Below are positions 7,350 through 14,137 of a stretch of 64,000 bases of DNA, piece after piece. The translations under genes and the position numbers were made by a program. Within the stretch, counting starts at the first letter, position 1, and every line of letters starts with the position of its first letter. The notes below the pieces were generated by a model, which saw only the letters and a program-made list of their open reading frames with translations, ran no database searches and was not told the DNA's origin. The stretch is from a phage: sequence record PZ212788.1; one strand, 5' to 3'.

Positions 7350-8111
7350 TTAAAGTTCCATAAAGTTTTCTACAGTTTCAATAAATGCTTTATCAGAGAA
7401 AGCGTCAACAGCACCGTTAAACCATACAGGGATCCCGCGATCCTCATATTGATAAAGGTCGCTACGTGAAATGCCACTTCCATCTGCACTCTGCGAATCA
7501 TACTTGTTTACAATCAGCAGTTTTGTGCCTTTACAAGTAGCAGGAAACAATTCCCAGTTAAAATTAATAACTGTGTTAGAACAACCTACCAGGATCACCA
7601 TATCATTGCTTGTGAGAGATGTCAACAGGTCATACATGTCTGTATACTTAGGAGCAACCTCACCGAAGAACACTACATTGGGCTTAACCCAGGTATACTT
7701 GCCTGTATCTACCTCCGTGTATCCGATATTTTTAATTACATCATTACCTTCAGCATCTTCGTAGGTGATTTCAGGCAAATACCCGTGGACATGTAAAATA
7801 TCTTCATGTTTTACACCAGCACGCTCCAGCAAATCATCTACATTGGTAGTAAGGTTGATCACACGACCAGACCAGCGGGAATACCACTCAGCGATCCGAA
7901 GATGTGCAAGGTTAGGATCAACACTGCCCAGAGCTACACGACGTGCATTGTAAAAGTCATGCACCTTATAGTAGTTCTTGGCAAAGGTGTGGATGTTGCA
8001 CACCTCATCGATGCTGAAATTCTCCCACATTGCAGTGCTACCAGATCGGAAAGTGGGAATACCAGATTCAGCGCTCAAACCAGCACCGGAGATAATAATC
8101 AGTCGTCGCAT
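7350..8111 (-). CDS. Sir2 (sirtuin) family NAD-dependent protein
   Basis: Sirtuin motifs ISGAGLSAESGIPTFRS, TTNVDDLLERAG, HVHG, PNVVFFGE; no four-cysteine zinc ribbon. Confidence 0.75.
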   Translation of the reverse strand: MRRLIIISGAGLSAESGIPTFRSGSTAMWENFSIDEVCNIHTFAKNYYKVHDFYNARRVALGSVDPNLAHLRIAEWYSRWSGRVINLTTNVDDLLERAGVKHEDILHVHGYLPEITYEDAEGNDVIKNIGYTEVDTGKYTWVKPNVVFFGEVAPKYTDMYDLLTSLTSNDMVILVGCSNTVINFNWELFPATCKGTKLLIVNKYDSQSADGSGISRSDLYQYEDRGIPVWFNGAVDAFSDKAFIETVENFMEL

Positions 8112-8119
8112 AAGTGTCC

Positions 8120-8470
8120 TCAGTAGATGTTTTGTTTAATCTCTATTCCAAACTTCTTGAATGAGTCAGCAGCAAGCATAAATTTACGAGCTGCCGATGG
8201 ATTAGAAGTATGCACGAAAATAATCACGTTGTCAATAAGTGGTGGCTTTCCGAATACAAGTTTCTCCTCTAGCGCAGAGAAGCAGTCGTACCCTTCAAGC
8301 ACTTCACCTAGATCATTGTCAAAATGCCACTCAGAAACGCGCCTGTAGAGCTTTCTATTATCGTTAATAAAATCCATGAACTCAGAAGAGTTCTTCAGCC
8401 AAAGAGCATCTTGGATTCCGTAATTTGACGGATCTCTCAAGTCATCTAGCCACACAATCAACTTCTTCAT
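8120..8470 (-). CDS. REC/flavodoxin-like small protein, translationally coupled to RNA ligase
   Basis: ATGA start/stop overlap with RNA ligase; KLIVWLDD, HFDNDLG, IFVHTSNP resemble receiver-like fold; function inferred from context. Confidence 0.4.
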   Translation of the reverse strand: MKKLIVWLDDLRDPSNYGIQDALWLKNSSEFMDFINDNRKLYRRVSEWHFDNDLGEVLEGYDCFSALEEKLVFGKPPLIDNVIIFVHTSNPSAARKFMLAADSFKKFGIEIKQNIY

Positions 8471-9402
8471 TGCATATAGTCCTCGTTGTGAAAATAGCAA
8501 TCAAGTATCTCACGGCGTTCCTGCTCCAGGAGGCAGTTCCACACATCTTCTGTGTAATTGCTACGAATGAAGTTTACCATGCCATAAAACTCTTCGTCAA
8601 TACGTTTAAAGATATCATCATCCCAAATCTTCCAAGCTTTACCCCTCATTACGGCCTTCCGTGCCAAATAGTATGGAGACTTGATCTTCAGCTGCAGGTC
8701 ATAAGGGTAGTAAGGCTTACGGATCATATACCCTTCGCCCCTTGTTTCTGCAGCTAATTCTTTTGCATAGCTGAACGGGATTTCACGCACAGTGTGAGGA
8801 CGTTTTGCACCAAGGTATTTGGCAATCCCATCTAAAGCTGCTTCTGGTAGCATTATTCCAGAATCATTATATCTGCAACCTATCAAATATGCGCCATGGT
8901 CTTCTTGAACAATATGCGGATCTGAAGGGTGACAAATTTCAAACATGAATGTCATGTTTTCATTGCCCATAACCTTCTTGATAAGATCTAAATTACCACA
9001 TTGCTCTTGGATGGTTTCCTTTGCAAGGTTACAATATGGAGAATCAAGAGACCCGGTTGTTGAGAACAATAGGTCACCTTTATGAGATGATACCACACCA
9101 AGGAATCCGTTCTTTTTCTCTACCGCAGTCACAAGCTTATTGTCAGGCAGGTTGGTGGAGTTTTCTCCCAAGTTAAACACTTTTGTGAAGGGCCATGCCA
9201 CAACATTTCCTTCATTACCTACAACAATGCCTCGGCACTCCAGTAAACGAGGGGACAAATGCCATAAATTGTTGTAAAATACTTTTCTAGCATATTTATA
9301 GATCTTTAACCCGAGATCTGGGTAATACCTACTGGTTACAAGACCTTTATCAACTAGGTCGTCTGCATTAAAATACTTCATCATACGTTCCTCATTTGTC
9401 AT
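8467..9402 (-). CDS. rnlA: RNA ligase, T4 Rnl1 (RnlA)-like
   Basis: PRLLECRGIVVG and VFNLGEN align with T4 Rnl1 PDALECRGIMFE / FFNLNEN; nucleotidyltransferase motif I KKNGF, motif IV EGYMIRK, motif V LKIK. Confidence 0.75.
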   Translation of the reverse strand: MTNEERMMKYFNADDLVDKGLVTSRYYPDLGLKIYKYARKVFYNNLWHLSPRLLECRGIVVGNEGNVVAWPFTKVFNLGENSTNLPDNKLVTAVEKKNGFLGVVSSHKGDLLFSTTGSLDSPYCNLAKETIQEQCGNLDLIKKVMGNENMTFMFEICHPSDPHIVQEDHGAYLIGCRYNDSGIMLPEAALDGIAKYLGAKRPHTVREIPFSYAKELAAETRGEGYMIRKPYYPYDLQLKIKSPYYLARKAVMRGKAWKIWDDDIFKRIDEEFYGMVNFIRSNYTEDVWNCLLEQERREILDCYFHNEDYMQ

Positions 9403-9502: not shown

Positions 9503-9913
9503 ATGTCTAAAATGCTATATATCGTGCGTGGTCTACCAGGGTCTGGCAAATCAACACTGGCAAATGCGCTATCTTTAGAGGGTCTGTATCCACATTTTGA
9601 GAACGACATGTTCTGGTATGACGATGACGGCAATTACAACTGGGATGCAAGTAAAGTAACACTCGCAGCGAAATGGTGCAAAGATAACGTAGAAGATATG
9701 ATGCGTATGGGATACGACCGTATCGTGGTAAGTAATACGTTTACAAAAGAAAAACATGTGCAGGAATATGTTGACATGGCAATCAGTCATGGGTATAGTT
9801 ATACCGTGATCGTGGTTGAAAACCGCCACGGTAATAAAAGCATTCATGATGTTCCAGACAAGGTTGTGGATCGTATGGAACGCCAGCTTAAAAACTGCAT
9901 TAAACTTAAATGA
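9503..9913 (+). CDS. P-loop polynucleotide kinase-like protein
   Basis: Walker A GLPGSGKST directly after start, size and layout like T4 Pnk kinase domain; start set at 9503 because ORF-track Met at 9446 lies upstream of the promoter -10. Confidence 0.6.
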   Translation: MSKMLYIVRGLPGSGKSTLANALSLEGLYPHFENDMFWYDDDGNYNWDASKVTLAAKWCKDNVEDMMRMGYDRIVVSNTFTKEKHVQEYVDMAISHGYSYTVIVVENRHGNKSIHDVPDKVVDRMERQLKNCIKLK

Positions 9914-9920
9914 GGAATGT

Positions 9921-10475
9921 ATGAAATACTTTGTAACAAGCGACACACACTTTCTCCACCAGCGGGTCATGGAGTTTGATTCATGTCAAAAACACAGATC
10001 TCAGTATGATCACAATCTTGACAGTATGAATGCGGGAATCATCGCCGAATGGAACTCTGTTGTGTCACCTGCAGACACTGTGTTCCACTTGGGAGATATT
10101 GCGTGCACTAATGATAAGAATATCAACAACTTACTTCCAGATATTCTAAATATGTTGAACGGACATATTATTCTTGTTCGTGGCAACCATGACACAAGGA
10201 CGACTGTCAGAATTATGAAAGAGTTCGGTCATGAGGTTGTAGATTATTACGAGCTTCGCCACAACAAGAATTTGATCTGTATGAGCCATTACCAATTTGC
10301 AAAGTGGAACAGAAAGCCTCACGGATCAGTCCAACTGTTCGGTCATGCTCACGGAACCACACAACAGTTGTTTGGCAGGCAGCTTGATGTCGGTTGGGAT
10401 GTGTGGGGGAGACTCTTACCATTAGAAGAGGCATACCGTATTGCAATGAGTTTTGCTATTGACAGCGGGGAGTAA
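9921..10475 (+). CDS. calcineurin-like metallophosphoesterase (candidate polynucleotide 3'-phosphatase)
   Basis: Motifs SDTHF, HLGDI, RGNHD, GHAH; GAGG RBS; start 9921 eight nt after kinase stop. Confidence 0.6.
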   Translation: MKYFVTSDTHFLHQRVMEFDSCQKHRSQYDHNLDSMNAGIIAEWNSVVSPADTVFHLGDIACTNDKNINNLLPDILNMLNGHIILVRGNHDTRTTVRIMKEFGHEVVDYYELRHNKNLICMSHYQFAKWNRKPHGSVQLFGHAHGTTQQLFGRQLDVGWDVWGRLLPLEEAYRIAMSFAIDSGE

Positions 10476-13324: not shown

Positions 13325-13353
13325 TTGACAAACTTTGCCTAACAGTGTAATAT
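13325..13353 (+). promoter_or_regulatory. sigma70-like promoter TTGACA-N17-TAATAT upstream of tRNA cluster
   Basis: Consensus -35 and near-consensus -10 about 60 nt before first tRNA. Confidence 0.55.
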
Positions 13354-13778: not shown

Positions 13779-13879
13779 GCCATATTGTTGACCTTGTAAT
13801 TAATCGAAAGCCGGAAGCAGAACCGGATTATCAAATGTTACAGTCGTCATCGCCGACTAGCAACATGGTCAACATACTG

Positions 13880-13976
13880 AGCTAGGTAAGCCCTTTGGCA
13901 AGGGCGAGGATTTTTAATCCTGAAAATAGACGAGGTAGTCGTTGAATACATAGGTGGTTCGATTCCATCACCTAGC
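13880..13976 (+). tRNA. atypical tRNA-like element (97 nt), anticodon hairpin presenting TTT (Lys-like), with about 30-nt variable-region insertion
   Basis: Acceptor GCTAGGT/ACCTAGC, D arm GCCC-TTTGGCAA-GGGC, hairpin AGGA-TTTTTAA-TCCT, T arm GGTGG-TTCGATT-CCATC; too long for canonical tRNA. Confidence 0.4.
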
Positions 13977-13985
13977 ACCTTTTTT

Positions 13986-14062: not shown

Positions 14063-14137
14063 GGCCCTGTAGCTGGAAGGTTCAAGCAAGCGACTCATAA
14101 TCGCCAGACGGTGGTTCAATTCCACCCAGGGCCACCA
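14063..14137 (+). tRNA. tRNA-Met or tRNA-Ile2 (anticodon CAT)
   Basis: Acceptor GGCCCTG/CAGGGCC, anticodon loop CTCATAA, T arm GTGG-TTCAATT-CCAC, CCA encoded. Confidence 0.7.

Follow-up and report, generated by a model that had tools for sequence, protein, structure and literature searches.

Among the tRNA genes of the phage DNA analyzed here, a window of 64,000 nucleotides from an rV5-like phage, in a region 98-99% identical to the rV5-like coliphages (genus Vequintavirus), lies one sequence that has been given contradictory names, and the question it raises is whether it is a tRNA, the remains of one, or an RNA that keeps the shape of a tRNA for another end. GenBank records call the locus tRNA-Lys, tRNA-OTHER, tRNA-???(atcc), tRNA-Stop(tta) or pseudo, and in others it carries no label, as in the rV5 reference record, which lists six tRNAs; the founding paper on rV5 also counted six tRNAs and omitted the element (PMC3606486). 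A first-pass annotation of the window had placed an atypical tRNA-like element at 13880-13976, and an element does occupy this site, but its start had been set one base early and its end short of the discriminator. It is composed of the following parts:

13881-13979, plus strand: tRNA-like RNA gene, from G1 to the discriminator A73 (13977), then an encoded CC (13978-13979)
13881-13887, plus strand: 5' strand of the acceptor stem, GCUAGGU, paired with ACCUAGC at 13970-13976 in a perfect 7-bp stem
13890-13905, plus strand: D arm, GCCC(UU)-UGGC-(AA)GGGC, with 13890-13893 paired to 13902-13905; predicted 6-bp stem and 4-nt loop
13898, plus strand: elbow-contact base G13898 in the D loop UGGC, which switches jointly with a T-loop base
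13906-13922, plus strand: 'anticodon' arm, read as G, AGGA, loop UUUUUAA, UCCU, G, with 13907-13910 paired to 13918-13921 and the loop at 13911-13917
13922-13952, plus strand: variable region of 31 nt, with a 5' flank GAAAAUA, a hairpin at 13929-13943 and a 3' flank GAAUACAUA, both flanks conserved
13953-13969, plus strand: T arm, GGUGG-UUCGAUU-CCAUC, with the canonical T loop UUCGAUU

The Rfam tRNA model (RF00005) gives the element 35.5 bits, above its gathering score of 29 and with E = 9.5e-4 for the full window, and is its best match in the clan, ahead of tRNA-Sec; to align the two, 26 nt have to be inserted in the variable region and residue 26 deleted. Folded alone, the element has a five-arm cloverleaf as its minimum-energy structure (-34.2 kcal/mol, z = -3.66), and none of 200 shuffled sequences folds as well. 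The Rfam score, the z of the fold and stems kept by compensatory changes in the homologs demonstrate that the element is not a chance resemblance. Its description as an atypical tRNA-like element rather than a standard tRNA of some other identity is supported. The perfect 7-bp acceptor stem, the D arm and the canonical T arm that had been reported can all be read directly in the sequence. The insert of roughly 30 nt with a 5-bp hairpin is close to the mark at 31 nt and five pairs (G-ACGA/UCGU-U, 13929-13933 with 13939-13943), of which four are Watson-Crick and one is G-U. The UUU loop, with U33, A37 and A38, holds for the rV5 lineage, but UUU is presented by the arm only while the loop stays open at 7 nt; an optional U13911-A13917 pair reduces it to 5 nt, and the minimum-energy fold to 3 nt. 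Past A73 and the encoded CC the sequence continues into a T run. The stretch 13951-13985, comprising the T arm and acceptor 3' strand and then TTTTTT, has the pattern of a simple terminator, and since tRNA-Thr begins only 6 nt beyond it, partial termination or read-through must occur.

Other readings of the same letters were considered. ARAGORN returns 'tRNA-???' with a four-base anticodon 'atcc'; both this fold and the label 'tRNA-Stop(tta)' were rejected because the ATTTT/AAAAT stem that they require cannot form in the homologs, as judged by eye from the alignments. A hammerhead-like reading of CUGAAAA...GAAU fails, from the sequence, on the order of the core and on the positions of G8 and A15.1. 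No tmRNA is reported by ARAGORN, and the sole Rfam tmRNA match, to the permuted model, reaches 17.4 bits and lies elsewhere in the cluster. Where the fifth arm begins, at its base, AAUA faces GAA, and these strands are put forward as a candidate sarcin-ricin-like motif.

The element has relatives well beyond the rV5 group. BLAST picks out the element but not its flanks in TH18-type phages (94% identity) and one Seunavirus (75%); between the rV5 and TH18 phages the flanks can no longer be aligned. Further carriers are PVP-SE1, SSE121, 4MG, Cronobacter phages, Klebsiella and Raoultella phages of the genus Mydovirus, one N4-like Ithacavirus (Schitoviridae), Phapecoctavirus (32 records), Erwinia phages, and contigs from IMG/VR and metagenomes. 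A family covariance model (R1), built from 13 sequences, gives exactly one match per locus at 68-126 bits, against no more than 31 bits for the ordinary tRNAs of the same loci; its matches span the Vequintavirinae, Phapecoctavirus, the Erwinia phages and the Ithacavirus, and it scores the window element at 99.2 bits (E = 7e-25), the sole high-scoring match in the 64 kb. A conserved 21-nt motif had no match in 185,579 bacterial and archaeal genomes (one genome per species), and judged by these searches the family appears to be restricted to phages. A relaxed pattern scan of IMG/VR added only the Phapecoctavirus variant, and a second, whose pattern was too strict in requiring five A's, yielded nothing new. 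Two members with the loop CAUCCA (SSE121 and LNA4) have no Rfam match at E < 0.01. No prior description of the family was found in open-access literature, and it is so far undescribed. The element very probably represents a conserved, phage-specific, five-arm tRNA-like RNA that lies outside Rfam and is inconsistently annotated.

The structure itself is well supported by covariation. Across 32 distinct sequences and 25 modeled pairs, 95.1% of stem cells hold standard pairs and compensatory changes are seen at 17 of the pairs, compared with 32-44% of cells paired in a control in which the 3' partners were shifted by 1-3 columns; the 13-sequence seed alignment gives the same picture. The acceptor and T stems are paired in 100% of cells in these sequences, with compensatory changes at five of the seven acceptor pairs. 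Covariation extends to three of the four core pairs of the D arm, to three of the five 'anticodon' pairs and to all four modeled pairs of the V stem, of which 80% of cells are paired and which in the TH18 group maintains its pairing through changes from A-U to G-C. The two additional U-A pairs of the D stem are predicted by RNAalifold and by every single-sequence fold, their bases being invariant and therefore without covariation. Each member folds, at minimum energy, into the five-arm shape, and RNAalifold given no structure recovers the acceptor, D (6 bp, 4-nt loop), 'anticodon' and T stems, the V arm being absent from its prediction.

Contacts outside the stems are also retained. At the third position of the D tetraloop and of the T loop the bases are G:C in 23 of the 32 sequences and U:A in nine, with no mixed case, and the T loop reads UUAGAUU wherever the D loop has U in place of G and UUCGAUU otherwise. 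Retention of this D/T elbow contact implies that the L shape is maintained; the switch from G:C to U:A may represent a single evolutionary event. All 32 sequences have A at position 8, and position 14, the first base of the D loop, is an invariant U, the inverse of the U8/A14 of almost all tRNAs. Very little variation is seen in the D and T arms, in the GAAAAUA and GAAUACAUA flanks or in the two central G-C pairs of the 'anticodon' stem. The variable region ranges from 31 to 41 nt and always includes a hairpin, and one subgroup retains the fifth-arm loop GAACUAACAGUA in distant phages. The folds and alignments establish a cloverleaf in which a 7/5 acceptor/T branch and an elbow are combined with a short 'anticodon' arm and, between conserved A-rich strands, a long fifth arm; selection has maintained this fold across several phage groups.

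The 'anticodon' loop follows the phage lineage. It reads UUUUA or UUAUA in Vequintavirus and the TH18 phages, CAUCCA (6 nt) in Seunavirus and Mydovirus, CAUCAAA (7 nt, position 33 being A) in Phapecoctavirus, Ithacavirus, the Erwinia phages and several contigs, and GUGAUA in one contig. This conservation within lineages indicates that the loop matters. Family-wide, the loops are 5, 6 or 7 nt long, their central triplets are UUU, UAU, UCC, GCC and UCA, A33 is present in most lineages, and no lineage has the standard geometry of five pairs and seven nucleotides with U33. As neither the sequence nor the length of the loop is conserved throughout, the family is not a tRNA-Lys. Several carriers with CAUCCA or CAUCAAA loops also encode an ordinary tRNA-Gly(UCC) or tRNA-Lys(UUU) in the same cluster, and this, together with the nonstandard loop geometry, suggests that the family is probably not a normal decoder. 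Compared with a canonical tRNA, the elbow contact (G19-C56) is present, but U8/A14, a 7-nt loop with U33 and a consistently kept anticodon are not.

The acceptor end is similarly patterned. C2-G71 is invariant and G1-C72 is found in 29 of the 32 sequences, while U73 occurs in 25, which is all but two of those outside the rV5 group. U73 is followed by an encoded CCA in 22 of the 32, all outside the rV5/TH18 branch, and the rV5 group encodes only part of the CCA and the TH18 group none of it. The bacterial lysine identity set consists of A73, U34, U35 and U36 (review PMC9976931), and all four determinants are present in the rV5 element when its loop is read as 7 nt. The combination of UUU and A73 is confined to the rV5 lineage, and the TH18 group pairs UAU with C73 or U73, which matches no identity set. 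The members with CAUCCA loops carry five of the six bacterial glycine determinants through G1-C72, C2-G71, U73 and C35/C36 (PMC9976931). The change to A73 coincides exactly with the loop becoming UUU; this co-switch, a single event, hints that recognition by a synthetase may be under selection. The Lys-like character first ascribed to the element is real in so far as A73, U34, U35 and U36 are present, but the element is not a tRNA-Lys as such, since its relatives differ: the lysine anticodon and discriminator are not kept in the orthologs, the TH18 phages having UAU with C73 or U73 and the other genera having other loops and U73.

The surroundings of the element bear on how it would be made:

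six ordinary tRNAs around the element: Arg-UCU, Tyr-GUA and Ser-UGA upstream, and Thr-UGU, Met-CAU and Pro-UGG downstream
13325-13353, plus strand: sigma-70-like promoter, TTGACA, 17 nt, TAATAT, from a consensus scan only
13783-13880, plus strand: structured 98-nt spacer directly 5' of the element (-24.6 kcal/mol, z = -2.46)

The promoter 'P(tRNA)' of the rV5 reference record maps onto 13325-13353, which is probably where transcription of the element-bearing cluster starts. Most family members begin 2 nt past the CCA of the upstream tRNA, the arrangement expected for RNase P processing, and in the window the 98-nt spacer fills the place of the abutting upstream tRNA seen in other genera. In its predicted fold the spacer has two inner hairpins enclosed by an 8-bp stem. 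At about 82% identity it resembles phage lambda 44866-44952, which lies unannotated between tR' and gene S, and at 86-88% identity it resembles parts of phage D6 and of a Salmonella siphophage; it matches no Rfam family. The CAU-anticodon tRNA at 14063-14137 is called Met in most records and Ile (codon ATA) in BASEL records, the candidates being an elongator Met or a lysidine-modified Ile2.

Upstream of the element, at a distance of 3.4-5.8 kb, the phage encodes a T4-type RNA repair set:

8120-8470, minus strand: cREC_REC domain protein
8467-9402, minus strand: Rnl1-type RNA ligase
9503-9913, plus strand: AAA_33 P-loop kinase
9921-10475, plus strand: metallophosphoesterase

By encoding this set the phage would be equipped for conflicts over cleaved tRNAs. 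A Sir2-like gene (7350-8111, minus strand) lies beside it, and cREC homologs also occur near the tRNA clusters of two distant loci (L037 and L054). A comparison of the open reading frames of distant loci with those of the window, in search of a co-inherited protein partner, returned just structural genes, a cREC homolog and a homolog of a transposase-like protein, and so pointed to no specific partner.

Natural variants indicate how far the element can be spared. In phages V18 and JES2013, deletions have created fusions of tRNA-Tyr with the element's 3' portion: in V18 (L071, about 855-947) the 5' half of tRNA-Tyr is joined, inside the variable arm, to the 3' half of the element's variable arm, and in JES2013 (L072, about 830-932) the junction lies in the T loop, where a 5' part resembling tRNA-Tyr passes into the element. 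Neither phage has tRNA-Ser or an intact element, from which it follows that the element is dispensable for growth on laboratory hosts, a dispensability that fits the usual behavior of accessory counter-defense or tRNA genes.

Other irregular tRNA-like sequences occur near family members. Just 3' of the element, Seunavirus loci (L003, about 1620-1790; also L010, L011, L012 and L014) have a second such sequence, consisting of an acceptor/D-arm-like GTGCATTAGCTCAG, about 105 nt and then GGTCGTAGAGC, after which come an anticodon-like arm (loop CGCGGAG, G33) and a degenerate T arm; TH18 has a related copy, and the window has none. The tRNA clusters of several genera contain elements of about 190 nt with long closing inverted repeats (e.g. 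AACATCTTATGTACGGG ... CCCGTACATAAGATGTT), located at 1310-1500 in L009, after the family element in L013, L015, L017 and L018, and after tRNA-Asn in L016. Several of these have in common, by eye, the motif TTAAAAYC..CTGCAYCTA.TGGGRTGTGA, and the one carrier locus searched (L016) gave no Rfam match at E < 0.01. At L036 (about 2540-2640), right after a family member, GGCGTT/AACGCC encloses a further tRNA-like sequence, which contains two hairpins resembling T arms, TGGGTTCGATTCCCAA and GAAGGTTCGATTCCTTC, and has CCA behind it.

Among RNAs already described, the allo-tRNAs and tRNA-Sec-like tRNAs (Mukai et al. 2017, PMC5389517) come nearest: like the family they have a long variable arm and anticodons that vary among relatives, and their long D stem with its tetraloop corresponds to the D stem predicted for the family. 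Some of these RNAs are inactive in translation, with five-stem junctions, and are thought not to decode, and some reside in phage tRNA clusters (PMC5389517). The branch sets the groups apart, being 8/4 or 9/3 in allo-tRNAs, 8/5 (13 bp) in bacterial tRNA-Sec and 7/5 in the family. In the family, moreover, the variable arm is set off on either side by 7-10 nucleotides that are unpaired and conserved, the loops are 5-7 nt and the discriminator is U73 (A73 in rV5) in place of the usual G73. Assignment to the allo-tRNAs (PMC5389517) was rejected on the 7-bp acceptor and 5-bp T stems, 100% paired, in place of an 8/4 or 9/3 branch. Assignment to tRNA-Sec (RF01852) was rejected on scores below its 47 bits, a 7/5 branch in all members, a discriminator U or A and the absence of UCA from the window element. 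Class II tRNAs (Ser, Leu and bacterial Tyr), represented by the tRNA-Ser and tRNA-Tyr neighbors of the element in the window, likewise add a base-paired variable arm to the cloverleaf. Their variable regions reach roughly 20 nt and begin near the core, in contrast to the 31-41 nt and conserved flanks of the family, which also differs in having A8/U14 for U8/A14 and an 'anticodon' loop that is not the standard 7 nt family-wide. The stable RNAs species 1 and 2 of T4 (rnaC and rnaD) are small, stable, tRNA-like RNAs of a phage tRNA cluster that are not ordinary decoders. A tRNA-Other of Bacillus cereus is mentioned as charged by LysRS and not a normal tRNA (PMC5389517). With both of these the resemblance is of context only.

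What, then, might such an RNA do? The reading favored here, held with slightly less than even confidence, is that it is a tRNA mimic, matured as a tRNA and possibly charged, which occupies a tRNA-binding factor instead of decoding and which has become tuned to lysine in rV5. The element would be co-transcribed with the tRNA cluster, cut by RNase P at G13881 as its neighbors would be, trimmed at its 3' end and then completed to CCA, and it would assume an L shape acceptable to tRNA-binding proteins. With an 'anticodon' arm that lacks one layer, or a loop of the wrong size (5, 6 or 7 nt, with A33 in most lineages), it would not decode normally and would therefore work as a mimic occupying a tRNA-recognizing factor. 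The invariant A8 and the invariant U that opens the D loop likewise speak against decoding, and C2-G71, G1-C72 and the prevalence of U73 speak for recognition of the acceptor end. The rV5 version would have acquired the lysine identity set (UUU and A73), its most likely partners being LysRS and/or host nucleases that attack tRNA-Lys, and as such it would complement the RNA repair genes nearby. Several points weigh against the mimic: conservation of the loop within lineages is also predicted by a decoding role, the joint change to A73 and UUU happened only once, the TH18 group fits no identity set, a decoy that is cleaved would need to be abundant to help, and an encoded CCA with a tRNA-like 5' junction is equally expected of a plain processing signal. 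An extended form of the proposal holds that the mimic is aminoacylated, five-armed and non-decoding, with an acceptor end and loop retuned in each lineage (Gly-like, UCA or Lys-like), and that in its carriers, large lytic enterobacterial phages, it jams or diverts a tRNA-directed defense or another tRNA-dependent process; this is considered unlikely.

The main rival to the mimic, and the third possibility named in the first-pass annotation, is a working, nuclease-resistant tRNA-Lys with an odd body, charged by LysRS, reading AAA and AAG, and a poor substrate for the nucleases that cut tRNA-Lys. Such a tRNA would account for a 7-nt loop UUUUUAA with U33, UUU, A37 and A38 which, with A73, supplies the complete lysine set, for the absence of another tRNA-Lys gene from the window, for the RNA repair genes nearby, and for the tRNA-Lys calls made by the pipelines behind several GenBank records. 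It also has a precedent in T5, whose tRNA-Lys, with changes in the anticodon stem-loop, resists AriB; this variant neutralizes PARIS and was shown to stay uncleaved and to rescue infection (PMC11464382). The T5 tRNA-Lys and the rV5 RNA are both phage-encoded, have UUU and an anticodon stem unlike that of the host tRNA-Lys, and belong to the setting of host-phage conflict over tRNA-Lys, but the former is otherwise a normal 76-nt tRNA, and in the latter a fifth arm is present and the anticodon arm is abnormal. Against a working tRNA-Lys, a 7-nt loop leaves four Watson-Crick pairs and a G-G mismatch with no residue 26, and five pairs leave a 5-nt loop (3 nt in the minimum-energy fold). The closest relatives, furthermore, carry UAU, other lineages have 6-nt loops or A33, and A8 and U14 stand in place of the near-universal U8 and A14. 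A working tRNA-Lys is regarded as a serious but rather unlikely alternative.

The remaining explanations fit the data less well than the mimic. The element could act purely in cis as tRNA-shaped punctuation, an entry point for RNase P and 3' exonucleases in the processing or stabilization of the tRNA transcript, with no function as a free RNA. RNase P needs a CCA and a canonical T arm, and the encoded CCA, the T arm and the position 2 nt after an upstream CCA in most genomes would all suit such a role, as would the dispensability evident in V18 and JES2013. Conservation, however, goes beyond the acceptor/T minihelix that would suffice for a processing signal: it also takes in the flanks of the variable arm, the loops particular to each lineage, the elbow contact, the D arm and the middle of the 'anticodon' stem. 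The window copy, in addition, has no adjacent upstream tRNA. A role confined to punctuation is on balance improbable.

More improbable again is a recoding tRNA family that reads UGA through the loop CAUCAAA, or quadruplets through an 8-nt form CCAUCCAG, of which the rV5 copy would be a changed or lost derivative. UCA is central in the strictly conserved 7-nt loop of Phapecoctavirus, Ithacavirus, the Erwinia phages and several metagenomic contigs, one Erwinia phage record labels the element tRNA-TERM, and tRNA-Sec is brought to mind by UCA together with the D arm and the length of the variable arm, such members scoring 39-42 bits on the Rfam tRNA-Sec model. These scores, however, fall below its gathering score of 47 and near those of ordinary tRNA-Ser and tRNA-Tyr (35-38 bits), nearly all members with UCA have A33 for U33, and the stem is four pairs long. 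The branch is 7/5 instead of 8/5 and the discriminator U73 instead of G73, and both UCA and an 8-nt loop are missing from the window copy.

A decaying pseudogene kept only through linkage, one sense of the earlier suggestion of a 'pseudo-tRNA' and of the pseudo label in some records, could invoke the incomplete or absent CCA of the rV5 and TH18 groups, but it is contradicted by the covariation data and scarcely credible for a member of a family under clear structural selection, all five stems being held by compensatory change, the element remaining 94% identical between rV5 and TH18 despite unalignable flanks, and one copy per genome persisting in several phage groups.

More than 200 sequenced phage genomes, members of the widely used BASEL collection among them, bear this RNA under contradictory labels or none, and its recognition as a single conserved family would allow their annotation to be mended. 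For tRNA biologists it offers a natural five-arm scaffold with a covarying elbow. If the aminoacylated form of the mimic proposal were true, the family would constitute a new class of RNA-based counter-defense, distinct from the supply of spare tRNAs. Debate over phage tRNA genes has set their use as spare parts against anticodon nucleases against a role in codon supply, and the RNA described here may be neither, but a mimic; its rV5 version, with lysine marks and an RNA repair module close by, is the obvious version to consider in relation to PrrC, PARIS and Schlafen-type defenses.
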